Below, one piece after another: positions 10,610-54,286 of a stretch of 57,606 bases of DNA. A program made the position numbers and the translations under genes. Under the pieces are notes generated by a model. That model did not search any database. It was not told the DNA's origin and saw only the letters and a program-made list of their open reading frames with translations. This DNA is from an uncultured Holophagales bacterium (GTDB lineage Bacteria; Acidobacteriota; Thermoanaerobaculia; UBA5066), in NCBI GenBank assembly GCA_964636395.1, contig CAZWRQ010000002.1, positions 1-57,606 on the forward strand, read 5' to 3'. Numbering within the stretch: position 1 is the stretch's first letter; each line of letters begins with the position of its first letter.

Positions 10610-13134
10610 CGGAGCCCCGCGATCGGACGCACCTGCGCCCCGCGCCGACGGCGTGCGCGCACTGCGGCCTCGCGGTCCCCGAGGGGATGCTCCGCCCCGG
10701 CGAGGAAAAGCAGTTCTGCTGCAACGGCTGCCGGCAGGTCCACGACCTGATCCGCGACTGGGGCTACGAGAAGTTCTACGGCCTCGTCGAGCAGCAGGGG
10801 GGCGCGCTCGAGCCGGCCCGTCCGACCGGGCGTGGGTTCGAGGACCTCGACGACCCGCGCGCGCTCGAGGGAGCCTCCGAGGAGGCGACCGGGGGCCGCC
10901 GTCGGACCCGCCTCTACCTCGAGGGGGTCCACTGCGCCGCCTGCGTCTGGCTCGTCGAGAAGCTCCCCGAGGCGCTCGACGGCGTCGACTCCGTGCGGCT
11001 GAACCTCGCGAACGCCGTCGCCGAGGTGACCTGGCGCCCGGAGAGGGTGAAGCTCTCGGCGATCGCCCGCGCCCTCGACCGCCTCGGCTACTCGCCGCAC
11101 GTCCACCGGGCCGGTCCCGCCCGCGACGCCCGCCGCGCCGAGGACCGTGCCGCCCTCGTGAAGCTCGGCGTCGCCGTGGCCGGGTCGATGAACCTGATGT
11201 TCCTTCACGGGGCGCTCTACGCCGGCGAGGCGTCCGGCATGGCGTCCCCCTACGAGGCGTTCTTCCGGTGGGTCTCCCTCGGTATCGCGCTCCCGGTCCT
11301 CGCTTTCTCGGCGCGGCCGTTCTTCCAGACCGCGTACGCGGGCCTGCGGTCCCGCTTCGTCCACATCGACCTCCCCGTCGCCATCGGGATCGCCGTCACG
11401 TTCGCCACGAGCGCCGCGAACGTCGTCCGCGGGAGCGGCCCGGTCTACTTCGACTCGCTCGCGATGCTCGTGGCGGCCCTCCTCGGCGCGCGGCAGGTGC
11501 AACGCGCCGCGCAGCGGGCGGCGCTCGAGCGGGCCGACAGCCTCCGCGGCGTCGCCTTCCTCGAGTTCGCGAGGCGGCTCGAGGGGGACGGCCCCGTCGC
11601 ACCGGCCGTCGAGGTCCCGGTTGCGGCCCTCGAGCCGGGCGATCGCGTCGAGGTCCGTTCGGGCGAGCTCGTCCCGGCCGACGGCGTCGTCCTCGTCGGC
11701 CGGTCCACGCTCGACGCCTCGGTCCTCACCGGCGAGTCGGCGCCCGTCCGGGTCGCCGAGGGGGACGCGGTCCACGCCGGCGTGACGAACCTCGGGGCCC
11801 GGCTCGTCGTGAAGGTCGAGGCAGCCGGCGAGAAGACGCGCGTCGGCGCGCTCCTCGCCGTCGTCGAGGACGCCCTCGCGCGCCGCCCCGCCGTCCTCCG
11901 CCTCACCGACCTCCTCGCGCGACGCTTCGTCCAGGCGCTCCTCCTCCTCGCCGCGGCCGCGCTCCTCCTCGCCCTCCCGCTCGGACCGGAGGCGGCCGTC
12001 GAACGCGTCGTCGCCCTCCTCGTCGTCGCCTGCCCCTGCGCGCTCGGGCTCTCGGTCCCGCTCGCCGTCTCGGTCGGGCTGATGCGCGCCGCCCGCGCCG
12101 GGATCTTCGTGAAGGACCCGGACGCCCTCGACCGGCTCCGCCGCGTCGGCACCGTCCTCCTCGACAAGACCGGTACGCTCACCGAGGGGAAGGCTTCGTT
12201 CGCCCGCTACGTCGGAGACGAGGCGGCGCTCGAGCTCGCCACGACCCTCGAGGCGGAATCGTCGCACGCCGTCGCCCACGCCCTCCGCGCCTCCCTCGGC
12301 CGCCGCGTGAACGTCGTCCGCGAGGTGACCGGGGTCCGCGAAGTCCCGGGACGCGGCATCGCTGGCATCGTCGACGGGCGCCGTGTCGCCGTCGGCAACC
12401 GCGTGCACGTCGCGGCACACGCCGCTCCCGCCCCGGGCGAGCTCGCGGCGCACGCCGAGGCGCTCGTCGCCGAAGGCTTCAGCCCGGTCTGGGTCGCCGT
12501 CGACGGCCGCGTCGCCGGCGTCGGCGGGATCGGCGACGCGCTCCGCGCCGACGCCCGCGCCACCGTCGACGCGCTCCGCGCCCGCGGCGTCCGCGTCAGG
12601 GTCCTCTCCGGCGACGACCCGCGCGTCGTCGCCTCCGTCGCCGCCCGCCTCGGGATCGCCCCGGAGGACGCCCTCGGCGGCCGGACGCCGGAGGAGAAGC
12701 GCGACCTCGTCGCCTCGCTCGTCGCGGCACGCGATGGCGAGGCGCGGCGCACCCCCGCCGTCGTCATGGTCGGCGACGGCGTGAACGACGCCGCAGCCCT
12801 CGCCCTGGCCGACGTCGGCGTCGCCGTCCTCGGCGGGAAGGGAGCCTCCCTCGTCGCCGCCGACGTCGTCCTGACGCGCGAGGGGGTCGCCCCGCTCCTC
12901 GAGCTCCTCCGCGGGTCGCGACGGGTCTTCGGCGTGATCCGCCGGAACCTCGCGTTCTCCCTCGTCTACAACGTCGTGGGCGCAACGCTCGCGCTCCTCG
13001 GACTCGTCGGACCGCTCCTCGCGGCCGTCCTGATGCCCGTCTCCTCGCTGAGCGTCGTCCTGTCGTCCGCCTTTTCCCGGCCCTTCCCCGCGGCGGCGCG
13101 CCGGACCGCGCTCACCCCCTCGAGGGAGGCGTAG
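10606..13134 (+). CDS. ccoI: Copper-translocating P1B-type ATPase CcoI/FixI
   Basis: GTG 10606 overlaps the ccoH stop. It has an N-terminal CAHCG...CCNGC metal-binding domain, the CPC TM motif (VVACPCALG), DKTGTLT and MVGDGVNDAAAL. Confidence 0.9.
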   Translation: MTEPRDRTHLRPAPTACAHCGLAVPEGMLRPGEEKQFCCNGCRQVHDLIRDWGYEKFYGLVEQQGGALEPARPTGRGFEDLDDPRALEGASEEATGGRRRTRLYLEGVHCAACVWLVEKLPEALDGVDSVRLNLANAVAEVTWRPERVKLSAIARALDRLGYSPHVHRAGPARDARRAEDRAALVKLGVAVAGSMNLMFLHGALYAGEASGMASPYEAFFRWVSLGIALPVLAFSARPFFQTAYAGLRSRFVHIDLPVAIGIAVTFATSAANVVRGSGPVYFDSLAMLVAALLGARQVQRAAQRAALERADSLRGVAFLEFARRLEGDGPVAPAVEVPVAALEPGDRVEVRSGELVPADGVVLVGRSTLDASVLTGESAPVRVAEGDAVHAGVTNLGARLVVKVEAAGEKTRVGALLAVVEDALARRPAVLRLTDLLARRFVQALLLLAAAALLLALPLGPEAAVERVVALLVVACPCALGLSVPLAVSVGLMRAARAGIFVKDPDALDRLRRVGTVLLDKTGTLTEGKASFARYVGDEAALELATTLEAESSHAVAHALRASLGRRVNVVREVTGVREVPGRGIAGIVDGRRVAVGNRVHVAAHAAPAPGELAAHAEALVAEGFSPVWVAVDGRVAGVGGIGDALRADARATVDALRARGVRVRVLSGDDPRVVASVAARLGIAPEDALGGRTPEEKRDLVASLVAARDGEARRTPAVVMVGDGVNDAAALALADVGVAVLGGKGASLVAADVVLTREGVAPLLELLRGSRRVFGVIRRNLAFSLVYNVVGATLALLGLVGPLLAAVLMPVSSLSVVLSSAFSRPFPAAARRTALTPSREA

Positions 13135-13377
13135 GTGGAGACGATCTTCGTCCTCCTCCCGCTCGCCCTCCTCATCGCGGGGATCGCCCTCGCGCTCTTC
13201 GTCTGGGCCGCGAAATCGGGGCAGTTCGACGACCTCGAGACCCCCGCAGTCCGGATGCTCTTCGACGACGAGCCTGCTCCCGCCGCCCCGCGCCCCGCGT
13301 CCGGCGGGCCCGCCTCTCCCCCGAACCCGAATCCTCCGGAGACCACCTCCGACGCGCCGACAAGGAGGACCGAATGA
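13135..13377 (+). CDS. ccoS: CcoS/FixS cbb3 oxidase maturation protein
   Basis: It starts directly after the ccoI stop. The sequence ETIFVLLPLALLIAGIALALFVWAAKSGQFDDLE is characteristic of CcoS. Confidence 0.85.
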   Translation: METIFVLLPLALLIAGIALALFVWAAKSGQFDDLETPAVRMLFDDEPAPAAPRPASGGPASPPNPNPPETTSDAPTRRTE

Positions 13378-13997
13378 GCCGACCGAGAACGCCCGTCCGC
13401 ATCCTGATCCTCCTCCTCGGGATGGTCGCGGCGGGCTCCCTGGCGTACGCGCTGAGCAACGTGCGCAAGGGCTACGAGCCGCGACAGCCGATCCTCTTCC
13501 GGCACTCGCGGATGGCCGGGCCCGCCGTGATGCAGACGAACGAGAAGGGCGAGGCGGTGAACGTCGGGGGCTACGACATCCCCTGCCTCACCTGCCACAC
13601 GATGCCCTACAAGGGACGCCACTCGACCGTCCCGTCCACCGCCGTCTGCATGAACTGCCACACGACGGTCGGCCTGAACCGCGAGTGGGTCCTGAAGATG
13701 AAGGACTACTGGGACCGGGGAGAGCCGATCCCCTGGGTGAAGGTCCACGACCTTCCCGACTTCGTCTACTTCGACCACTCGGCCCACCTGAACGCGAAGG
13801 ACGGGAAGGGCAACCCGAAGCTGCCGCTCGCAGACGCGGAGGGGCGCCCCTGGCAGATCTGCGCGAACTGCCACGGCCGCGTCGAGGAGACCGACATCGT
13901 CTCCGTCACGAACGCCTTCAACATGCAGTGGTGCCTCGACTGCCACCGCAAGCCCGAGATGAAGGCCTCGACCGACTGCGTCGCCTGCCACCGCTAG
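13374..13997 (+). CDS. actA: Alternative Complex III pentahaem cytochrome c subunit ActA
   Basis: ATG 13374 overlaps the ccoS stop (ATGA), with AAGGAGGA upstream. It has an N-terminal TM and five CxxCH sites (CLTCH, CMNCH, CANCH, CLDCH, CVACH). Confidence 0.85.
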   Translation: MSRPRTPVRILILLLGMVAAGSLAYALSNVRKGYEPRQPILFRHSRMAGPAVMQTNEKGEAVNVGGYDIPCLTCHTMPYKGRHSTVPSTAVCMNCHTTVGLNREWVLKMKDYWDRGEPIPWVKVHDLPDFVYFDHSAHLNAKDGKGNPKLPLADAEGRPWQICANCHGRVEETDIVSVTNAFNMQWCLDCHRKPEMKASTDCVACHR

Positions 13998-14009
13998 AGG
14001 GAGACGAAC

Positions 14010-17000
14010 ATGAAACCGAACGAGACCTCCCCCCGGCCCGAGGCAGGCGTCGACCGGCGCGAGTTCCTCCGCCTCGGGAGCGCGCTCGCGGCGGCCGGCG
14101 CCCTCGCGAGCGCGGGCTGCCAGCCGCCGCAGGAAGCGACGATCCCGTTCCACGACATGCCCGAGAGCCTCGCAGAGGGGATCGGGCGGGCCCGCTTCTT
14201 CCACACCGTCGTCGACGGCACGCCCGTCCTCGTGAGGACGCGCGAGGGGCGCCCGATCCTCGTCGCGCCGAGTCCGACCGACGCGAGCGGCCGGGGCCTC
14301 ACGCTACGCCACCAGGCCGCGCTGATGGACCTCTACGACCCGGACCGGGCCCGCGGTCCGCTCTCCGTCCGGAGGGGCCAGGGGCCGACCGTCGCCTCGA
14401 GCTGGAAGACGGTCGGGTCCGAGGTCGTCTCCCGCCTCGCGAAGGCCGGCAGCGGCGCGGTCCTCCTGACGGGACCCGTCGCGAGCCCCGCCCTCTCCGA
14501 TGCGATCGGCGCGATCTCGGCCGCCACCGGCCTCCGTCATGTCGCCTGGGCCCCGCTCGCCTCCGACGCCGCGGCGGCCGCGCACCGGGCCGCGTTCGGC
14601 GACGAGCGCCTCCCGCGGCCGCTCCTCGGGAAGGCCGACCTGATCCTCGGCCTCGGCGCCGAGCTCCTCGACCGCCCGGCCGACGGCCTCGAGCGTGACT
14701 TCGCGATGCGCCGCTCCCCCGACGCGCCCGAAGCGCGGATGAGCCGCTTCGTCCAGATCGAAGGGCGCCTTTCGCTCACCGGCGCGAACGCCGACGAGCG
14801 GGTACGCGTCCGCGACTCGCAGCTCGCCTCCGTCGCCGCCGCCCTCGCGCACGAGCTCGTCGTGACCCGCAAGGCCGGCCCGCTCGCCGCCGACGCCGCG
14901 GTCGCCGCCGCCCTCGCGCCGTTCGCTCCCGAGGCCGTCGCGAAGAAGGCGGGCCTCGACCCGGCGCTCCTCTCCCGCCTCGCCGGCGAGCTCCTCGCCG
15001 CGCGCGGGAAGGCGATCGTCCTCGCGGGAGGCGCGGCGAGCGGCTCGGCCTCGGGCGAGGCGCTCGAGCTGGCGGCCCTCCTCCTGAACCTGACGCTCGA
15101 CGCCTACTCCGCCGGCCTCTTCGACGAAGCGGCCGCCGAGCGGCCCGCCACAGGCAGCGCCGCCGCCCTCGCGGCCCTCGCCGACGAGATGCGCGCCGGG
15201 AAAGTCTCGCTCCTCCTCGTCGCGGGCGCGAACCCCGTCTACGACGCGCCGTCGGCGCTCCGGATCGCCGAGGCGATCGCGAAGGTCCCCTTCGTCGTCT
15301 CGCTGAACGACCGCCTCGACGAGACGAGCCTCCTCGCCGACCTCTTCGCCCCGGCGAGCCATCCGTTCGAATGCTGGGGCGACGCGACGCTCCCGAAGGG
15401 GCTCCTCGCGATCCAGCAGCCGGTGATCCAGCCGCTCTACGACACGCGCGGTCTCCTCGACCTCCTCGTCGAGTGGGGCGCCGCTGCCGGGGCGGGCGGA
15501 GAGCTCGCCGCCGCCGTCGCCGCCGCCACGGCCGCGCTCGCGAAGGTCCCGCTCCCCGCCTCCGCGGCTCCCGCGCCGAGCCCCAGCTTCGCGTGGCACT
15601 TCCTCCGCGCTGCCTGGGCGCCCCGCTTCGGCGCGGCGTCCGGCTCGCCCGAGCTCGAGAAGGCCTGGAACGAGCTCCTCCGCTCCGGCGCCTTCCAGGG
15701 GCCCGCCCCCGTTGCGCCTCCCGCGCGTTCTCTCGCCCCAGCGGCGCTCGCGCTCCTCTCCGCGCTCCCCGAGGCCCCCGCCGGCCTCGAGCTCCAGCTC
15801 TACCCGCACCTCGCGCTCCACGACGGGCGCGCCGGGAACAACGCCTGGCTCCAGGAGCTCCCCGACCCGATCACGCGCATCTCCTGGGGCGGCGCGCTCT
15901 CGATCGCCCCCCGCCGCTTCGACGAGATGGGCCTCGCGAACGGCGACCTCGTCGAGGTCGACTCGGGGCATGGCAAGCTCGTCGCGCCGGCCTACCGCCA
16001 CGCCGGGATGCACGCCGACGAGGTCGCGCTCCCGCTCGGCCTCGGGCGCTCCGCCTGCGGCCCGATCGGCGCCGGCGTCGGCCCGAACGCCTTCGCGCTC
16101 GGCCTCCTTTCGAACGGTCGCCTCCTCTCCGCCGGCCTCCCCGTCACGATCCGCAAGGCCGGCGGGCGCGAGGAGCTCGCGTTCGCGCAGGGCTCCGACG
16201 TCATCGACCGCGACCGGCGCCCGCTCGTCCCGGTCACGACGCTCTCCGCATACGAGAAGGACCCGAAGTCGGGGACCGAGCAGCAGCACGGCGGCCCCTC
16301 GGCCTGGCCGGAGCACGACTACCCGAACGCCCGCTGGGCGATGGCGATCGACCTCAGCAAGTGCAACGGCTGCGGCAAGTGCGTCCTCGGCTGCCAGGCC
16401 GAGAACAACATCCCCGTCGTCGGCCGCCGGGGAATCCTCGACGGCCGCGAGATGTCGTGGATGCGGATCGACCGCTACTACGACGCCCCGAAGAAGGAGG
16501 GCCGCTGGGACGCGGAGGTCTGGGACGGCCCGCTCCCGGTCGTCGAGGAGCCGAAGGTCCTCTTCGAGCCGATGCTCTGCCAGCACTGCGAGAACGCGCC
16601 GTGCGAGACCGTCTGCCCGTTCGTGGCGACGATGCACAGCGAGGACGGCCTGAACCAGCAGATCTACAACCGCTGCGTCGGCACCCGCTACTGCGCGAAC
16701 AACTGCCCGTTCAAGGTGCGGCGCTTCAACTTCTTCGAGTACGGCAAGGCGCAGGAGAGCGCCCTCTTCCGGGCGCTCGAGCCCCGCATCAAGCGGAACG
16801 CGGAGCTGAACACCCGCGCCCCGATGCAGATGAAGAACAACCCCGAGGTGACCGTGCGGAGCCGCGGCGTGATGGAGAAGTGCTCCTTCTGCGTCCAGCG
16901 GATCCGGGAGGCGCGGGCCGCCGCGACGCGCGACGGGAAGGAGAAGACGCACTTCCCCGACGGCGCCGTCGTGCCGGCCTGCATGGAGGCCTGCCCGACC

Positions 17001-46804: not shown

Positions 46805-46830
46805 GAGCGGCCCCGACCGGGGCGCCGCTC
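46805..46830. terminator. Hairpin between convergent genes (candidate bidirectional terminator)
   Basis: GAGCGGC-CCC..GGG-C-GCCGCTC gives a 7 + 3 bp stem. It overlaps the stop of the minus-strand OMP gene. Confidence 0.4.
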
Positions 46831-47869
46831 AGAACCGCCGGCCGACACCGAGGAGGAAGACGTCCGTGTCGCGGTGGTACGAGCTCGCCATCCGGTTCCA
46901 GCTGAAGCGCGCGAGGGCGCGCGAGCCGAACCGATAGCTCACGCTCGGCGTGATCAGGCCGGCGATCGTCCTCGAATCACCCTCCGTGTGCAGCGGCTTG
47001 TACTCGTCGGTTGCGAGGTAGACGCCGACGCCGAGCGAGACCGTGAGCCTCCGGTCGAGGAACGCCCGGCCGAGCCAGCCCTGCACGCCGAACCCCGCCC
47101 GACGGACGAGCCGCGAGTCCCCCTCGTGGACGTACGAGACGGAGGCGTCGAAGAAGCGGCCGAACCCCTTCCGGAGCTCCACGGCCCAGGCGAGCGCCTT
47201 CGCGCTCTCGAAGCCGTTGACGACGGTCTGGCCCACGAACACCGTCACCTCGTTTCGGGTCGTCGGCTCGTCCTGACTCGCAGGCCTCGGGCGCGATCCA
47301 GGCGCTTCCGGAGGCGCGAGCTGGTAGCCGAGGCCCGCGAGGACGTTCCAGGCGTCGGTGCTCGACGGAGGCGCCCAGGCGACGTTCGCCTCGGCCCGCA
47401 CGACCCAGCGGTTCCCGAAGTAGTAGGCCGCGTCGGCGCTGAAGAGCCCGGCAACGCCGTGCTCGTTCGCGTAAGGCCGCCAGGGGTGCGAGTCCACCGT
47501 GTCGTAGTACCGCATCGCCCCGGCCCCGACGGCGAGCGAGAGCCGCCCGTCGCGAAGCCTCTCGCGAGCCCAGAGCTGCAACCCGTGACCGTCCCGGTGG
47601 TGCCCCGTGACGTGCCCCTCGTTCAGCCACGAGTACGTGACCTCGAAGTGCTCGCCGAGCCCCTGGCGGTACTCCACCTTCCAGGCGTAGGTGCTCTCGT
47701 CCAGGTCGCGCGCAGTGGAGGCGCCGCCGAAGAGGGTGAGCTCCTGAGCGGCCGCGGGACGCGCGGCGAGGAGCGCGAGGAGGGCGAACGCCGCCCGAAC
47801 GCCGCGGAGGGCGCACGTGCCTCCGCGGCCGACCGCCCCAGTTGTGACGCGCATGAGAGCCCGGATCAT
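46829..47869 (-). CDS. Outer-membrane beta-barrel protein made of two internally duplicated ~150-aa modules
   Basis: It has a signal peptide ending AAAQE and C-terminal ...LLGVGRRF. The two halves align (ELTLFGG..AWKVEYRQGLG..SWLNEGH.. versus EVTVFVG..AWAVELRKGFG..SYVHEGD..). The start is ATG 47869 or 47854. Confidence 0.6.
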   Translation of the reverse strand: MIRALMRVTTGAVGRGGTCALRGVRAAFALLALLAARPAAAQELTLFGGASTARDLDESTYAWKVEYRQGLGEHFEVTYSWLNEGHVTGHHRDGHGLQLWARERLRDGRLSLAVGAGAMRYYDTVDSHPWRPYANEHGVAGLFSADAAYYFGNRWVVRAEANVAWAPPSSTDAWNVLAGLGYQLAPPEAPGSRPRPASQDEPTTRNEVTVFVGQTVVNGFESAKALAWAVELRKGFGRFFDASVSYVHEGDSRLVRRAGFGVQGWLGRAFLDRRLTVSLGVGVYLATDEYKPLHTEGDSRTIAGLITPSVSYRFGSRALARFSWNRMASSYHRDTDVFLLGVGRRF

Positions 47870-47947
47870 GCCACCCGACGCCGGCGCGCCGGCCCCGCGC
47901 CGAAACCGGCGCGCCCTTCGCGGCATCGGATCGGGAAAGGAGACTCG

Positions 47948-48415
47948 ATGATCCGCCGCCTGCTCGCCGCCCGCACGTTCGTCCTCCGCGCCTCATCCTC
48001 CCTCTCCTGGCTCCCGCTCGCCGCCGCGCGTGTCGCGCTCGGAACCGTCTTCGTCCAGTCGGGCTGGGGGAAGCTCCACGACCTGCCGCGCGTCGTCGGC
48101 TACTTCGAGAGCCTCGGCATCCCGGCCCCGCAGCTGCAGGCGCCGTTCGTGGCGGGCGTCGAGATTGCCGGAGGAGCTCTCCTCCTCGCGGGGCTCTTCA
48201 CGCGTGTCGCCTCCGTCCCGCTCGCAGCGACGATGGTCGTCGCGCTCCTCACCGCGAGGCGCGCCGACCTCGGGAGCGCTTCCGACCTCTTCGGCGCAAT
48301 CGAGCTCCTCTACCTCCTCCTCCTCGGGTCGCTCGCGGGGTTCGGGGCGGGCGCGCTCTCGCTCGACGCGCTCCTCGTCCGGCGCTTCGCACCGGACGAG
48401 GAGCCGAAGGGCTAG
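47948..48415 (+). CDS. DoxX family membrane protein
   Basis: It has LAAARVALGTVFVQSGWGKL...FVAGVEIAGGALLLAGLFTR, typical of DoxX. Its 3' end overlaps the convergent DUF2063 gene by 4 nt. Confidence 0.8.
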   Translation: MIRRLLAARTFVLRASSSLSWLPLAAARVALGTVFVQSGWGKLHDLPRVVGYFESLGIPAPQLQAPFVAGVEIAGGALLLAGLFTRVASVPLAATMVVALLTARRADLGSASDLFGAIELLYLLLLGSLAGFGAGALSLDALLVRRFAPDEEPKG

Positions 48416-49266
48416 CTCGCGACGCTCGGGCCGGGGGCGACCCCGGCCCGGGCGAAGGCGCCGAGCGCGCTCCACTCCGCGAGCCAGCCCGCCACGATTT
48501 GCGCCGGAGGGCGCGGGCTCGCCGCACGGGCGAGCGCCTCTCCGAGCGGGAAGCCCGCGACGAGAGCCGCGAGGAGCCGGCCCGGTACCGGGTCTAGGGT
48601 GCGGCGGAGGACGGTGAAGTCCCTCCGGTAGAACGCGACGTGGACGATGCCTCGCCCGGCGGAGGTGGGGGCCGGAGAGTCCTCGAGGACCGCGTCGAGG
48701 GCCGCGACCGCTCCCGGCCGTACGGTGAGGATCGCGAACGCGGGCGCGGCGACGAGGCGGAGCGATTCCCCCTCCGACTCGAGCGCCTCCGCCAGCGCGG
48801 GGGCGCCGAGGAGAGCGACGTCCGCGGCGTCGAAGACGGCCGCCGCGGCTTTCTCGAGGCGGGCGACGTCCTCGCGAAGGCCCCGTCCGCGCATCGGCCC
48901 CCACGCGGCGACGAACGACGGAAGCCGGTCGCCGAGCCGGGCGAGCGTGAAGCTCGTGGAGGGGTGCGCCGCGACGTACTCCCGAACGAACGCGCCGAAC
49001 CTCTTCTCGCCGAGAAGCTTCGCGAGGGCCGGGTAGTCGGAGCGGAGAGCCTCGACCGTCCGGAGGGGATACATCGACGCGTAGATCCCGAGGCGCTCGA
49101 CGGGAGAGAGCGCTCCGTGCGCGCGGACGACGGCGCCGAGCCGAGACGGCGGGAGGAGCTGCCGCGCGGAGGGCGAACGGAGGCCCGCGTCGACGCCGCC
49201 GGGGTGGACGATCACCGTCTGCATCCACGCCTGGAAGCGCGCGAGGGGGAGGCCGGCCGCCGTCAC
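48412..49266 (-). CDS. DUF2063-family protein (BufC/HvfC/MbnC-like partner of MNIO enzymes)
   Basis: GTG 49266 overlaps the DUF692 stop (GTGA). The N-terminal region FQAWMQTVIVHPGG...LGIYASMYPLRTVEAL...FGAFVREYVAAHPS is typical of DUF2063. Confidence 0.75.
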   Translation of the reverse strand: MTAAGLPLARFQAWMQTVIVHPGGVDAGLRSPSARQLLPPSRLGAVVRAHGALSPVERLGIYASMYPLRTVEALRSDYPALAKLLGEKRFGAFVREYVAAHPSTSFTLARLGDRLPSFVAAWGPMRGRGLREDVARLEKAAAAVFDAADVALLGAPALAEALESEGESLRLVAAPAFAILTVRPGAVAALDAVLEDSPAPTSAGRGIVHVAFYRRDFTVLRRTLDPVPGRLLAALVAGFPLGEALARAASPRPPAQIVAGWLAEWSALGAFARAGVAPGPSVAS

Positions 49267-50129
49267 GCCGCCTCCCGCGCGCGACGCCCGTCGCGATCGC
49301 CGAGGGCGACCTCGGCCACGGATCGCGCCTTCCGCGCCTCGGCGAGGACGACGTCGAGCGCCGGGATCTCCTCGTCCCACTCGACGAGCGTCGTCACGGG
49401 GCCCGTGCGGCGGACGAGCCGCGCGTAGAGGGTCCAGACCTCGTCCCTCACGTGGTCGGAGTGCGTGTCGAGGAGGTGCGTCCCGAGGTCGGTGTGCCCC
49501 GCGAGGTGGACCTGGACGACCCGGTCGGCCGGGATCTCGTCGATCCACGCCTCGGCGTCCTGGCCGTGGTTGAAGGAGGAGACGAAGACGTTGTTCACGT
49601 CGACGAGGAGTCCGCAGCCGGAGAGGTCGGCGAGGCGGCCGAGGAACTCGGCTTCTCCCATCGTGGAGGCGGCGAGCTCGAGGTAGGTGGAGGGGTTCTC
49701 GAGGTGGACCGGCCTCTCGAGGACCTCCTGCACGACGCGGAGGCGCGCGGCGACGTGCGCGAGCGTCTCCTCGTTCCGCGGGAGCGGCAGGAGGTCGTGC
49801 GTGTTCCGGCCGGCGACGCCCGTGAAGCAGAGGTGGTCGGTCACCCAGCGCGCGTCGACGCGCCGGGCGAGCTTCTTCACCGCCCGGAGGTACTCGAGGT
49901 CGAGCGGGTCGACGCTCCCGACGTTCAGCGAGACGCCGTGCAGGACGATGGGCGTCCTCTCCGCGAGCTGCTCGAGGACGTGGAGGGGCCGCCCTCCGGT
50001 GTCGAGGAAGTTCTCGGTGATCGCCTCGAGGAAGTCGGCCGTGCCCGGCCGTTCGAGGTGGTCGGCGAAGTGGACCGTCCGGAGGCCCACGCCGTAGCCG
50101 AGCATCGGCAGGCCGAATCGGTTTCGCAT
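49263..50129 (-). CDS. DUF692 / MNIO (multinuclear non-haem iron oxidase, MbnB/BufB-like) RiPP maturase
   Basis: ATG 50129 has GGAGG upstream. It has [71 protein letters not shown] and [10 protein letters not shown]. Confidence 0.85.
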
Positions 50130-50188
50130 GTCGTCCTCCGGTCGGGCGGGGCGGCCCCTCGGCGCGGGGCCGCCCTCGCGCGGTCCGA

Positions 50189-50575
50189 TCAGGCCGGCTT
50201 CGCCGTCGGCTGCGCCGCAGCCTTGCCGTCCGTGCGGCATCCGCCCATTCCCTTGCAGGCGTTGTGGCCGCGACAGGCGTTCTTCTCCGTCTTGCAGCCC
50301 CCCTTCCCCTTGCACGCGTTCTGACCCTTGCAGGCGTGCTTGTCGGTCGCCTCGGGACCGGCCTTCTTGTCCCCCTTCTCGTCTCCCGCCTTCTTGCCCC
50401 CGCAGCCGTTCGGGCCGCCGCAGGCGTTCTTGTCCTTCTGCGTCGCGGCCGGCGTCCCCGAAGGGGCGGGCGTCTTCTCGTCGGCGCGGAGCGAGCCCGC
50501 CGCGAGAGCGGAGCTCGCGACGAGGCCGGCCACGAGGGCGGACAGGTAGACGTTGGACGGACGGTTCCTCTTCAT
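50189..50575 (-). CDS. Secreted Cys-rich Lys/Gly-rich precursor peptide (bufferin-like RiPP precursor candidate)
   Basis: It has AGAGGAG upstream and a Sec signal peptide ([19 protein letters not shown]). Eight Cys lie in repeated motifs: [45 protein letters not shown]. It lies immediately upstream of the DUF692 and DUF2063 genes. Confidence 0.75.
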
Positions 50576-50692
50576 GGTGTCTCCTCTTTCGACAGGCCTC
50601 GCCTGCCACGTTCGTTTCGGCCGGCCACGCTGGCCGGTCCGCGGGTTTCAGCACTCGGGATGCCGGCGCGGCGAAAAGGTTTCAGCCGAGGA

Positions 50693-50727
50693 AACGGATC
50701 GCCCGATGGACTTCCGGGCGATCCGTT
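50693..50727. promoter_or_regulatory. Perfect 13-bp inverted repeat AACGGATCGCCCG-N9-CGGGCGATCCGTT in the divergent precursor/msrBA intergenic region
   Basis: Read directly from the sequence. The region is flanked by three copies of GAAACC (two on the minus strand as GGTTTCAGC at 50644-50652 and 50678-50686, one on the plus strand at 50731-50736). Confidence 0.4.
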
Positions 50728-50773
50728 CGCGAAACCGGAGCGGACCTGCGAGCATCAAGGGAGCGTGACGACG

Positions 50774-51895
50774 ATGCTCGCAACCCCTGCCCCCCGCCCT
50801 CCCCGGCCGGTCCCGCATCGCACGAGGCCTCGCGCCGCGCGCCTCCTCGCCGGCCTCGCCTTCGCGGCCGGCTTCGCCGCCTGCGGCCCGTCGAGCTCGC
50901 TCGCGGGGCCTCCGGCCGGCGAGCAGACGAAACCCGAGAAGGTGGAGAAGATGAAGCACGTCCTCTCGAAGTCCGGCTACGACGTCACGCCCCGTTCGCG
51001 CGAGGAAGTCGCCGTCCTCGCGAAGAGGCTCTCCCCGGAGTCGTACCGCGTGACGCAGAAGGCCGGGACGGAAGCCCCGTTCTGCGGGAACCTCCTCGAC
51101 AACAAGAAGGAGGGGACATACCTCTGCGTCGTCTGCGGCCTCCCGCTCTTCTCGAGCGAGCACAAGTTCGACTCGGGGACCGGCTGGCCGAGCTTCTTCC
51201 GGGAGGTCGACCCCGCTCACGTGGCGCGGACCGTGGACCGCTCGCTCGGCATGGAGCGGGTCGAGATCGACTGCGCCCGCTGCGGCGCCCACCTCGGGCA
51301 CGTGTTCGAGGACGGACCGGCCCCGACGGGCGAGCGCCACTGCCTGAACTCCGCCTCGCTCACGTTCCTCGAGAAGGGGGCGCCGGTCCCGCCGGAGAGC
51401 CGCCCCGTAAAGACCGAGACCGCCTACTTCGCGGCCGGCTGCTTCTGGGGCGTCCAGCACTGGTTCTCGCGCGGGCCGGGTGTCCTCGAGGCGACGAGCG
51501 GCTACATGCAGGGACGGACGGAGAAGCCGACCTACCGGCAGGTCTGCGACGGGGACACCGGGCACGCCGAGACGGTGAAGGTCGTCTACGACGCGAACCG
51601 GATCTCCTACCGCAGGCTCGTCGAGGCGTTCTTCGCCATGCACGACCCGACGCAGCTGAACCGCCAGGGACCCGATGTCGGCGACCAGTACCGCTCGGGG
51701 ATCTGGACCGTCGACGCCGGGCAGGAGAAGGTGGCGCGGGAGGTCCTCGCGGAGCGGGCCGCACAGAAGGCGTACGGCGCGAGGAAGATCGTGACGGTCG
51801 TCGAGCCGGCGAAGACGTTCTGGCCCGCCGAGGAGTACCACCAGGAGTACCTCGCGAAGAACGGCGCCGCCTGCCACGTGACGAACCCGTGGTGA
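50774..51895 (+). CDS. msrBA: Bifunctional peptide methionine sulfoxide reductase MsrB-MsrA, lipoprotein/secreted
   Basis: It has a lipobox-like AAGFAAC. The MsrB part has [21 protein letters not shown] and RHCLNS. The MsrA part has AGCFWGVQ and [19 protein letters not shown]. In-frame GTG 50765 is an alternative start. Confidence 0.9.
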
Positions 51896-51972
51896 TCGGC
51901 GAGTGAGCGGAGCGTGACCGCGGGCGAGCCGCGATTTCCCCGGAGTCGGTCCGGGCGGCTACGATCCGCGCG

Positions 51973-52530
51973 TTGTCCGAGATCGAGGCGCGGGAGAGGC
52001 TGGCGAAGCTGATGGTGGCGTACCAGGGCGGTGACGAGTCCGCGTTCGAGAGTCTCTACGGCGAGCTCGCGGGCCCCGTGAGGGCGTTCCTCGCATCGCT
52101 CACGCGGAACGCGGCCCGAGCGGACGACCTCCTCCAGGAGACGTTCTTCAACGTCCACCGCGCACGGCTGACGTACGACCCGACGCGCTCCGCGAAGGCG
52201 TGGGTCTACGCCATCGCGCACAACGTCTTCCTGATGGCCTGCCGCACGGACCGGAGGCGCGGCCGGAACGAGGAGCTCCCCGCGGACGAGCTGCCCGACC
52301 TCCCCGTCCCGGCCGAGGCCGAGTCGCTCGCCTCGAGGGACCTCGTCTCGCGCGCCCTCGCGACGCTCCCCGTCGACCGCCGCGAGGCGCTCCTCCTCCA
52401 CCACGTCGAAGGGCTCTCGTTCCAGGAGGTGGGGGCCGTCCTCGGCGTCACGACGATGGCCGCGAAGCTCCGCTCGCACCGCGCCATGGGTCAGCTCCGG
52501 GAGCTCCTCGCCCGCGAGGGGGCGCGATGA
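51973..52530 (+). CDS. ECF-type RNA polymerase sigma factor (SigF-like group)
   Basis: Region 2 (LLQETFFNVHRARLTYDP...AWVYAIAHN) and region 4 (LLLHHVEGLSFQEVGAVLGVTTMAAKLRSHRA) are present. The TTG start is from the ORF track. Confidence 0.85.
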   Translation: MSEIEARERLAKLMVAYQGGDESAFESLYGELAGPVRAFLASLTRNAARADDLLQETFFNVHRARLTYDPTRSAKAWVYAIAHNVFLMACRTDRRRGRNEELPADELPDLPVPAEAESLASRDLVSRALATLPVDRREALLLHHVEGLSFQEVGAVLGVTTMAAKLRSHRAMGQLRELLAREGAR

Positions 52531-53240
52531 GCGGCACACCGCTCCCGCCCGCGCTTCGCGCCGCCGTCGAGAGAGACCTTCGGCCGGTCCGCCCGCTCGC
52601 CTCGCCGGCGCGGCGCGCCCTCGTCCTCCTCGCCTGGGCCGCCGTCGCCGCGGCCCTCGTCCTCGCCCTCCGGGGCCTCCGCTCCGACGCCTCAGAGCTG
52701 GGCGTCCTCCTGACGTGGGGCGTCGTCCTCGCCGAGGTCGCCGCAGGCGCCGGGCTCGTCGCGCTCGCGCTCGCCGAGGCGGTTCCCGCGCGGGGACCGG
52801 GGCGCGGCGCCGCGCTCCTCGCCCTCGGCGGTGCCGCGGCCCTCTTCGTCGCCCTCGCCGTCGCGGCCCGCCGCGCGAGCCACGGGATGGAGGTCGACGA
52901 CCCGCTCCTGAGGTTCGGCCCCTCCTGCGCCGGCCTTCAGGGCTTCATCGGCCTGACGGCCTTCGCCGTCGCCGCCCTCCTCGTCCTTCGGGCCGCGCCG
53001 CTCCGCGCCCGGCTCGCGGGGCTCCTCGCCGGCGCCGGGACCGGCTTCCTCGCCGAGGGGGTCTACCACCTCGACTGCCCCATCACGCACCTTTCTCACG
53101 TCCTCGTCTGGCACGGCTCCGCCATACTCCTCCTCGCGCTCTTCGGGCTCGGCTTCGGCCTCGTCCTCGAGGCGAGGGAGCGGGCTCGAATGGAACGACG
53201 GCGCGCCGACACGGCCGCGCGGAAAGGAGGCGAGGGTTGA
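52527..53240 (+). CDS. NrsF-like (DUF1109) membrane anti-sigma factor
   Basis: ATG 52527 overlaps the sigma stop (ATGA). It has about 6 TM helices and two Cys 50 residues apart (Cys134, Cys184). From memory, that matches the spacing reported for Caulobacter NrsF. Confidence 0.7.
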   Translation: MSGTPLPPALRAAVERDLRPVRPLASPARRALVLLAWAAVAAALVLALRGLRSDASELGVLLTWGVVLAEVAAGAGLVALALAEAVPARGPGRGAALLALGGAAALFVALAVAARRASHGMEVDDPLLRFGPSCAGLQGFIGLTAFAVAALLVLRAAPLRARLAGLLAGAGTGFLAEGVYHLDCPITHLSHVLVWHGSAILLLALFGLGFGLVLEARERARMERRRADTAARKGGEG

Positions 53241-54286
53241 GCGACGAGGTCTTCCGGAAGCTCACGAGCCTCTCTTCCTGCGCGGGGTGAGCGTCGAAGC
53301 TGCCCCCCGGGCAGACCGCGCAGGTCCTGCGCGTCCTCGGTGACCTCTTCCCCGCGGCCTCCCGCCCCGACGTCCTCGTCGGGCTCGCCGAGCCGGACGA
53401 CGCCGCGGTCCTCGACCTCGGGGACGGGCGGGCGCTCATCCTGACGACCGACTTCTTCACGCCGGTCGTGGACGAGCCGTACGACTTCGGCGCCATCGCG
53501 GCCGCGAACGCGATGAGCGACGTCTGGGCGATGGGGGGCGAGCCCGTCCTCGCTCTGAACCTCGTCGCCTTCCCGCCGCAGCTCTCGGCCGCGACGCTCG
53601 CCGAGCTGCTCCGAGGGGGCGCCGAGGCCGTCCGCGCCGCAGGGGCCGTGATCGCCGGAGGGCACTCCATCCAGGACAAGGAGCCGAAGTACGGGCTCTG
53701 CGTCGTCGGCTTCGGCGAGACCGGCCGTCTCCTGACGAAGGGGGGCGCGCGGCCGGGTGACGGGCTCTGGCTGACGAAGCCGCTCGGGACGGGGACGGTC
53801 ACGACGGCCCTCAAGCGCGGCCTCGCTTCGGAGGGCGAGGTCGCCGCGGCGGTCGCCTCGATGAAGGCGCTGAACCGGGGCGCGGCGCGCGCCGCGTGGG
53901 CGGCGGGAGCGAAGGCCGCGACCGACGTCACCGGCTTCGGCCTCCTGGGGCACGCGCTCGAGATGGCCGAGGCGTCGGGCGTCCGCTTCCGCTTCGAGTG
54001 GGACGCGCTCCCCTTCCTTCCCGGGGCGGCGCGCCTCGCGGCCGACATGGTCTTCCCCGGCGGCGCCTTCGGGAACCTCGAGCACTTCGGATCGCGCCTG
54101 GCGCGCTCGCGCCCCCTGACCGACGCCGAGGCGATGCTCCTCGCCGACCCGCAGACCTCGGGCGGCCTCCTCGTCGCGGTGCCGGCGGGAGGAGAGGAGC
54201 CGTTTCGCGCTTCGATCGGGCGCGAGGGCGGTCCGGCGTGGCGGGTCGGCGAGGTCGTCGAAGGCGACGGGCTCGAGGTGTCCTGA
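53237..54286 (+). CDS. selD: Selenide, water dikinase (selenophosphate synthetase) SelD, with in-frame UGA (selenocysteine) at 53288-53290
   Basis: TTG 53237 overlaps the anti-sigma stop (TTGA). FRKLTSLSSCAG-U-ASKLPPG aligns with E. coli SelD IRLTQYSHGAG-C-GCKISP. The same frame continues into DDAAVLDL and TTDFFTPVVDEPYDFGAIAAANAMSDVWAMGG. The ORF track only reports 53468-54286. Confidence 0.85.
53300..53333 (+). promoter_or_regulatory. SECIS-like stem-loops downstream of the selD UGA
   Basis: CTGCCC-CCC-GGGCAG lies at 53300-53314. CGCGCAG-GUC-CUGCGCG lies at 53317-53333 (7-bp stem, G-first loop). The second resembles the GCAGGUCUGC apex of the E. coli fdhF SECIS. Confidence 0.55.

Follow-up and report, generated by a model that had tools for sequence, protein, structure and literature searches.

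A probable Buf2-type bufferin cluster in an uncultured Holophagales bacterium, with a single ECF-type promoter motif ahead of its bufA, doxX and msrBA genes

A cluster of genes resembling those for copper-binding modified peptides was analysed in a 57,606-nt contig stretch (hereafter the window, whose numbering is used throughout; about 72% G+C) from the 4.97-Mb assembly of an uncultured Holophagales bacterium (GCA_964636395.1, contig CAZWRQ010000002.1). On the minus strand, bufA, bufB and bufC encode a Cys-rich precursor, an MNIO (DUF692) maturase and its DUF2063 partner. A doxX gene converges on them, and divergent from them run genes for a fused methionine sulfoxide reductase (msrBA), an extracytoplasmic function (ECF) sigma factor, an NrsF-like anti-sigma factor and selenophosphate synthetase (Table 1). 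Gene models were based on a listing of open reading frames (ORFs) and inspection of start codons, and families were assigned by hidden Markov model (HMM) scans with Pfam and NCBIfam. The layout described in an earlier sequence-only reading of this DNA was recovered in full. The minus-strand genes follow the order precursor, MNIO, DUF2063, with the GTG start of bufC overlapping the TGA stop of bufB as GTGA, and the stops of doxX and bufC share the palindrome CTAG (48412-48415), giving the 4-nt overlap that had been claimed. The neighbours, too, were as described: a divergent msrBA, an ECF sigma gene and a DUF1109 gene whose product has two Cys 50 residues apart. As argued below, the locus is very probably a Buf2-type (Cys-Lys, BUF_6/12Cys) bufferin/captophorin cluster under an NrsF-gated ECF sigma factor, acting by the mechanism that we propose. 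New here is the finding that a single ECF-type promoter motif precedes bufA, doxX and msrBA.

Table 1. Genes, predicted promoters and other features of the bufferin-type locus
Feature	Position	Strand	Remarks
doxX (bufD-like)	47948-48415	+	membrane protein of 155 aa; converges on bufC
bufC, DUF2063 partner of MNIO	48412-49266	-	284 aa, GTG start
bufB, MNIO (DUF692) maturase	49263-50129	-	288 aa
bufA, precursor	50189-50575	-	128 aa, strong ribosome-binding site (RBS) GAGGAG, directly upstream of bufB
msrBA, fused methionine sulfoxide reductase B/A	50765 (GTG) or 50774 (ATG) to 51895	+	divergent from bufABC
ECF sigma factor gene	51973-52530	+	185 aa
nrsF-like (DUF1109) membrane anti-sigma gene	52527-53240	+	4-nt overlap with sigma gene at 52527-52530
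selD, selenophosphate synthetase	53237-54286	+	TTG start, 4-nt overlap with nrsF stop
Predicted doxX promoter, GAAACC-N15-GCATC	47902-47927	+	-10 end 20 nt before ATG
Predicted bufABC promoter, GAAACC-N14-GCATC	50659-50683	-	83 nt before bufA
Predicted msrBA-sigma-nrsF(-selD) promoter, GAAACC-N15-GCATC	50731-50756	+	8 nt before GTG 50765
Stem-loop between bufA and bufB	50139-50187	-	GC-rich, no T-tract; minimum free energy -37.4 kcal/mol
Hairpin ACAGG...CCTGT in bufA 5' untranslated region (UTR)	50590-50608	-	just upstream of bufA RBS
Perfect 13-bp inverted repeat AACGGATCGCCCG-N9-CGGGCGATCCGTT	50693-50727		exactly between divergent bufA/msrBA -35 boxes; seen in the sequence itself

HMM searches supported the bufferin-type assignment proposed in the sequence-only reading for three of the four genes, the DUF692, DUF2063 and DoxX proteins all passing their Pfam cut-offs, and the precursor matched the BufA2 (6/12-Cys) model below its curated cut-off. 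BufB scored 329.7 bits with PF05114 (cut-off 25) and also passed the curated equivalog cut-off of the bufferin maturase model MNIO_BufB (NF050167; 331.8 bits, cut-off 310); its nearest PDB entry was 3BWW (E=5.6e-44). BufC scored 64.8 bits with PF09836 (DUF2063; cut-off 27.2) and is presumed to carry a C-terminal RRE domain; a PDB sequence search with BufC gave no match. For DoxX, the score was 78.5 bits with PF07681 (cut-off 23.6). MsrBA contains SelR and PMSR domains (NF004042, 365.9 bits, cut-off 330) and carries an N-terminal export signal in which FAAC is a possible lipobox. ECF-type regions 2 and 4 were recognised in the sigma factor (Sigma70_r2 51.7 bits, r4_2 46.1 bits, TIGR02937 82.7 bits), and SelD (TIGR00476, 355.1 bits) has an in-frame TGA read as selenocysteine at residue 18.

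The BufA precursor begins with a Sec-type signal, read from the sequence as MKRNR, a 19-residue hydrophobic stretch and ALAAG; an AlphaFold2 model placed a helix at residues 9-21. After the signal comes a Lys/Gly-rich region that holds an accessory C52-x5-C58 module and then a six-Cys Buf2 core from C82 to C113, exactly eight Cys in total. Each core Cys (C82, C88, C94, C101, C107 and C113) is directly followed by K or R, and together they form two C-x5-C-x5-C units, so that the eight Cys, two near-identical units and degenerate upstream unit noticed earlier are all present. All eight Cys were invariant in 27 homologues with identity down to 54% (alignment A1). This conservation, together with the recurrence of the gene order in related genomes, shows that the locus is not a product of chance. 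A search of 5.8 billion proteins returned 640 BufA homologues, the nearest from metagenome-assembled genomes of Thermoanaerobaculia and Holophagales, and a PDB sequence search with BufA gave no match. The sole NCBIfam match of BufA was BufA2 (NF050166; 41.5 bits, E=1.1e-10), with residues 75-115 aligning gap-free to profile positions 26-66; the curated cut-off of this model is 60 bits.

The family of BufA is modular, built from HACKGxNxCKGxGGC units, and includes members with 6, 8, 12, 13, 14, 17 or 25 Cys. Two-unit members (6-8 Cys) scored 40-57 bits with the BufA2 model, whereas members with at least four units (at least 12 Cys) passed its cut-off, as with P0038 (65.3 bits) and P0029 (89.6 bits). 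The sub-threshold score of BufA therefore reflects its length and not a separate family, since longer homologues made of the same units pass. The idea that the repeat-type precursor represents a new family was rejected, its homologues grading continuously into proteins that pass the cut-off. In Buf2 (BUF_6/12Cys) precursors, 90% of members have 6 conserved Cys and the remainder 12 (PMC12452194), and NACKG is among the common 5-mers of the 'Cys-Lys' precursor group of captophorins (PMC13097082). As both studies describe the same Cys-unit group, the repeat architecture is a family signature. The sequence-only reading had called the eight-Cys repeat distinctive; this does not hold for the repeat, which is the defining Buf2 unit with its NACKG, and holds only for the extra C-x5-C pair beyond the 6/12-Cys pattern.

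Gene order was compared on contigs of related genomes with close precursor homologues (L006, L007, L009, L011 and L012). In L009, the closest relative, whose precursor is 90% identical, an nrsF-sigma-msrBA unit is divergent from bufABC and a selD-sized gene overlaps nrsF; selD appears to end the sigma operon there as well, but not in L006 or L011. L006 has nrsF-sigma divergent from bufABC and a convergent doxX with a 4-nt overlap, and in L011 nrsF-sigma is immediately divergent from bufABC, with doxX lacking. L007 has bufABC and a convergent doxX; its msrBA lies at a distance of 7 kb, and a sigma gene is lacking in the vicinity. On this contig a CzcCBA-type resistance-nodulation-division metal-efflux operon (10727-16328) lies directly beside the convergent doxX, an arrangement that fits a role in metal stress. 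L012 holds an orphan precursor gene. Across the phylum, a precursor of this kind was encoded in 37 of 401 sampled Acidobacteriota genomes (22 of 228 genera). At 31 of the 36 acidobacterial loci that were fetched, the MNIO and DUF2063 genes were adjacent, in bufA-bufB-bufC order with short gaps; about 20 of the 36 had a doxX gene in the vicinity, its orientation varying, and an ECF sigma gene was close by in about 15.

The same genome contains a second bufferin locus on contig C222 (6383-7536; locus L001, 466-2654, minus strand). Its precursor has six Cys, a Tat-like signal (RRQMFG) and a Trp-helix-Cys tail, scores 53 bits with the BufA2 model, and is followed by a single fused ORF with an MNIO part (residues 137-397; BufB, 358.5 bits) and a DUF2063 part (residues 501-576). 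It could be asked, then, whether the eight-Cys peptide of the window is exported unmodified, as a plain Cys-rich metal-binding or disulphide protein, while the adjacent MNIO and DUF2063 proteins serve another substrate such as the C222 precursor. This would agree with the BufA2 score under the cut-off, with the presence of a second precursor gene in the genome and with the existence of orphan precursor genes (L012; also reported in PMC12452194). We consider it very improbable: a fused BufB-BufC enzyme of its own is encoded beside the C222 precursor, bufA, bufB and bufC closely follow one another at most of the acidobacterial loci, as given above, and the predicted selectivity site of BufB is acidic, which would fit Cys-Lys substrates. 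At that site, the residue after the catalytic Asp, Phe is found in MNIOs acting on Lys-Cys precursors and Asp in those acting on Cys-Lys precursors (PMC13097082). The position was mapped in BufB by way of the ERDF motif of 3BWW and corresponds, on this mapping, to the Glu of an E-W-D-E motif at residues 251-254, acidic and neither Phe nor Asp. Among 35 acidobacterial homologues encoded beside Cys-Lys precursors, 15 have D at this position, 13 have A, 6 have E and one has Q, while F does not occur. The predicted selectivity site of BufB thus appears to fit the Cys-Lys class in kind without being identical.

Both Cys of the accessory module (C52 and C58) are followed by Gly, not Lys. The NGCxGxxGCG module also occurs ahead of four-unit cores in other acidobacterial genomes, giving 14 Cys, and in a few proteins it is C-terminal. 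With GGC at its end, the core of BufA has no counterpart of the Trp-helix-Cys tail of the C222 precursor, a tail of the Buf1/Buf2 kind. Without this tail, all six core Cys might be converted; if so, the product would be a flexible multi-site chelator and not a disulphide-clamped mini-protein. Judging from these sequence patterns, the invariant N-terminal C-x5-C module may define an unrecognised '+2' subclass of Buf2, with eight Cys in two-unit and 14 in four-unit members and possibly a fully converted core, a suggestion that we make tentatively and hold to be less likely than not. The module could bind a further metal ion, offer the MNIO another target pair of the Cys-Gly type, or serve as a docking motif for the recognition domain of BufC.

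Alignment of the regions upstream of bufA from five genomes revealed a conserved TGAAACC-N14-GGCATC. A strict form of this motif (GAAACC-N14-16-GCAT) was then searched over the entire assembly and gave seven matches, three of them in this locus and each of these positioned ahead of a start codon. Chance would give 0.06 matches within the window, as against the three observed, and in 100 shuffles the count never rose to three. The remaining four (contigs C7, C109, C229 and C362) were not convincingly placed ahead of a gene, so the search added no further regulon members, and the motif was absent from the C222 locus. In four related genomes, ten more sites were found at orthologous positions: ahead of bufA, doxX and the sigma gene in L006, of bufA, doxX and the distant msrBA in L007, of bufA and msrBA in L009, and of bufA and the sigma gene in L011. 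The partnership of these genes in one regulon, proposed earlier for this DNA, is thus supported by a single ECF-type motif ahead of bufA, doxX and msrBA. The regulons named in the same proposal, those of Caulobacter SigF and Neisseria Ecf, do unite these gene types in the literature (PMC3511200, PMC2893595, PMC7907618). The motif also accounts for the position of doxX on the opposite strand, which had been thought unusual: with a promoter copy to itself, doxX would form a transcription unit apart from bufABC within one regulon, and relatives (L006 and L007) keep the convergent arrangement. The predicted sites have the same build as those of the Sinorhizobium meliloti ECF16 factor RpoE7 (TGTAAC-N17-CGAAT), which drives a DUF692/DUF2063 operon (PMC6180224, Table 1), and differ from them in both boxes. 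A scan for sigma-70 promoters gave no match, and the lone terminator-like match lay inside bufA on the wrong strand.

The motif was not found in the 77-nt gap between msrBA and the sigma gene; the sigma gene is therefore presumably co-transcribed with msrBA in an autoregulated operon that, given the overlap of selD with the end of nrsF, would run on into selD. Exactly 8 nt separate the -10 box from the start codon of msrBA (here, in L007 and in L009) and from that of the sigma gene (in L006 and L011), the sites upstream of such starts being at 1173-1198 in L007, 7283-7308 in L006 and 7794-7819 in L011. The N-terminus (M)TT of MsrBA is kept in L007 and L009. This spacing and the conserved (M)TT suggest that the msrBA and sigma mRNAs are leaderless and favour GTG 50765 as the predicted msrBA start. 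Unlike these genes, bufA and doxX have leaders with strong RBSs.

The anti-sigma factor is, by its sequence, a distant member of the NrsF family (PF06532, 68.9 bits, cut-off 26.8). Its Cys134 and Cys184 are exactly 50 residues apart and invariant in four relatives, matching the spacing of C131 and C181 of Caulobacter NrsF, on which the chromate and cadmium response depends (PMC3511200); the equivalence of the two pairs is one of spacing only. By analogy with Caulobacter (PMC3511200), the pair may gate the release of the sigma factor. Buf2-type clusters of other, more distant acidobacterial families also adjoin ECF sigma genes; a tblastn search for NrsF beside these gave no matches, and at the only such locus where the gene following the sigma gene was readable (L053, 5846-6121, minus strand) it encodes a short ZAS-like anti-sigma factor with the HxxxCxxC motif HLEHCEIC, not NrsF. 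The link to NrsF is for these reasons confined to a close clade, and lineages would thus differ in the stress sensor to which they have coupled the peptide system.

This lineage difference could also be read as a sign that the neighbourhood is coincidental, the sigma factor controlling only msrBA and its own gene while other regulators drive bufABC and doxX; the L007 buf operon, which stands beside two-component sensor genes and without a nearby sigma/NrsF pair, could be cited in its support. Such a coincidence is highly unlikely, as the motif precedes bufA and doxX in the genomes examined, L007 included, whose msrBA keeps the motif at a distance of 7 kb, and as three of the seven matches genome-wide fall inside this 3-kb stretch, each correctly set before a start codon.

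We therefore return to a Buf2-type cluster under NrsF-gated sigma control, for which the following mechanism is proposed. Envelope stress (copper, another thiophilic metal or an oxidant) would act on the two Cys of NrsF and free the ECF sigma factor, which would fire three GAAACC-N14/15-GCATC promoters, those of msrBA-sigma-nrsF-selD (a positive autoregulation), of bufABC and of the convergent doxX. In the cytoplasm, BufB and its DUF2063 partner BufC would oxidise Cys of BufA to 5-thiooxazoles, the stem-loop after bufA holding the precursor mRNA above that of the enzymes. The Sec signal would export the modified Lys-rich peptide, which would buffer copper in the periplasm, while exported MsrBA would repair oxidised periplasmic methionines and DoxX might play an accessory redox role. 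The data show the gene identities, their conservation and the promoter motif with its distribution; in this scheme we infer the Cys-to-thiooxazole chemistry, the inducer, the bound metal, the transcription starts and the roles of the hairpins. For BufA1, the signal peptide was dispensable for modification (PMC11626156).

The same machinery might instead serve in defence against oxidants such as hypochlorite and other reactive chlorine or oxygen species, the periplasmic peptide, rich in thiols and thiooxazoles, acting as a sacrificial scavenger together with exported MsrBA, much as the Met-rich MrpX does with YedY under SigF/NrsF in Azospira (PMC4436054). Transcription of the sigma and nrsF genes would begin, together with that of msrBA, at the same type of predicted promoter; NrsF systems of Azospira answer reactive chlorine species (PMC4436054), and Haemophilus ECF sigma factors drive msrAB and a DoxX/MNIO cluster under hypochlorous acid (HOCl) stress (PMC7907618). 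Genes for AhpC/TSA, glutathione peroxidase and rhodanese also lie near the locus in relatives. Every characterised MNIO-DUF2063 product, however, binds copper, a metal against which bufferins give protection (PMC11626156, PMC13097082), and the metal-efflux operon adjoining doxX in L007 likewise speaks for metals; we regard oxidant defence as the main role as rather unlikely, although the two roles are not mutually exclusive.

Several points weigh against a Buf2-type cluster under NrsF-gated sigma control. Besides the sub-threshold BufA2 score, a Pfam scan of BufA gave no match, and its AlphaFold2 model from the 27-sequence alignment (mean predicted local distance difference test score 45.8, predicted template modelling score 0.20) was too poor for comparison with the Buf2 fold and its disulphide clamp. 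The cut-offs of more specific models for three of the other proteins were not reached either: BufC scored 18.3 bits with the HvfC model (cut-off 142), DoxX 65 bits with the HvfX family model NF050144 (cut-off 80) and the NrsF-like protein 19.3 bits with the NrsF equivalog NF042994 (cut-off 300). DoxX of Caulobacter is dispensable for both modification and function (PMC11626156), and a 2025 survey found sigma/NrsF genes with Buf1 and not with Buf2 clusters (PMC12452194). Transcription starts and induction are, moreover, predictions from the DNA.

The nearest known system is Buf2 of Caulobacter vibrioides (bufA2-bufB2-bufC2, NF050166/NF050167; PMC11626156, PMC12452194, PMC13097082), which shares with this locus a Sec-exported precursor with six Cys in Cys-Lys/Arg dyads that form two C-x5-C-x5-C units (compared by way of the NF050166 profile and not pairwise), a BufB-type MNIO gene overlapped by the DUF2063 partner gene after it, and control by an NrsF-gated ECF sigma factor. 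The precursor described here differs in its N-terminal module, which brings the invariant Cys to eight instead of 6 or 12, and in scoring under the BufA2 cut-off, and its host is an acidobacterium (Thermoanaerobaculia/Holophagae-like). Caulobacter buf2 lacks the doxX that is present here, convergent and with its own promoter, and in contrast to the Buf2 clusters of the 2025 survey (PMC12452194) the sigma and nrsF genes lie within the same locus. Caulobacter buf1ABCD with sigF-nrsF (CC3252-CC3257) likewise has precursor, MNIO, DUF2063 and DoxX genes beside those for an ECF sigma factor and a DUF1109 anti-sigma factor with a Cys pair 50 residues apart, and one promoter type across the regulon; here, by contrast, the precursor is not of the DUF2282 type, doxX forms a separate convergent unit and the sigma operon starts with msrBA and ends with selD.

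In Neisseria (sigma-E/Ecf) and Haemophilus (RpoE2), an ECF sigma factor similarly controls exported MsrAB and a cluster of DoxX, MNIO, DUF2063 and a Cys-rich peptide (PMC2893595, PMC7907618), but with a small cytoplasmic ZAS anti-sigma factor and EGKCG (Lys-Cys) precursors in place of the membrane NrsF and the Cys-Lys precursor found here. The SigF/NrsF system of Azospira suillum with YedY1Z1 and MrpX (PMC4436054) resembles the locus in combining an NrsF-gated sigma factor with an exported peptide rich in oxidisable residues, a periplasmic Msr and divergent promoters; it differs in its peptide MrpX, which is rich in Met and not modified, in its reductase, the molybdoenzyme YedY, and in lacking an MNIO. 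The content of the regulon, an ECF sigma factor, an exported Msr and an MNIO cluster with DoxX, was thus already known from Caulobacter (PMC3511200, PMC11626156), Sinorhizobium (PMC6180224), Neisseria (PMC2893595) and Haemophilus (PMC7907618). The departures from it are modest: the +2 Cys module, sigma/NrsF genes in a Buf2-type locus, an operon with msrBA first and selD last, and a separately promoted convergent doxX.

The locus is a fairly ordinary example and leaves the picture of the bufferin family unchanged. Bufferins/captophorins are a very large and recently recognised class of copper-binding modified peptides that has been studied almost only in Proteobacteria, and the present case is an acidobacterial one in which a whole predicted regulon, three transcription units with one ECF promoter, can be read from the DNA. 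The shared promoter ties the peptide to DoxX, to periplasmic methionine repair and, oddly, to selenophosphate synthesis. The locus would also indicate that a sigma/NrsF switch can form part of a Buf2-type cluster, a layout not among the major ones of the 2025 survey (PMC12452194), and it points to an 8/14-Cys '+2' variant of the precursor.

Three further non-coding features were noted (Table 1). An Rfam search (E<=1, 47500-53500) matched none of them to a known RNA family. The stem-loop between bufA and bufB occurs at the same place in L006, L007, L009 and L011 with differing stem sequences, and probably sets the ratio of precursor to enzyme by partial attenuation or by stabilising the mRNA. 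The hairpin in the 5' UTR of bufA is found in all five genomes, its loop and inner stem being variable. The 13-bp inverted repeat is only partially conserved in L009 and could be a candidate operator of a second regulator. The ATG of a long minus-strand ORF (46829-47926), which encodes an outer-membrane beta-barrel-like protein, falls within the -10 box of doxX; the true start of this ORF is probably the ATG at 47869 or 47854, just ahead of a typical signal peptide, AFALLALLAARPAAAQE.

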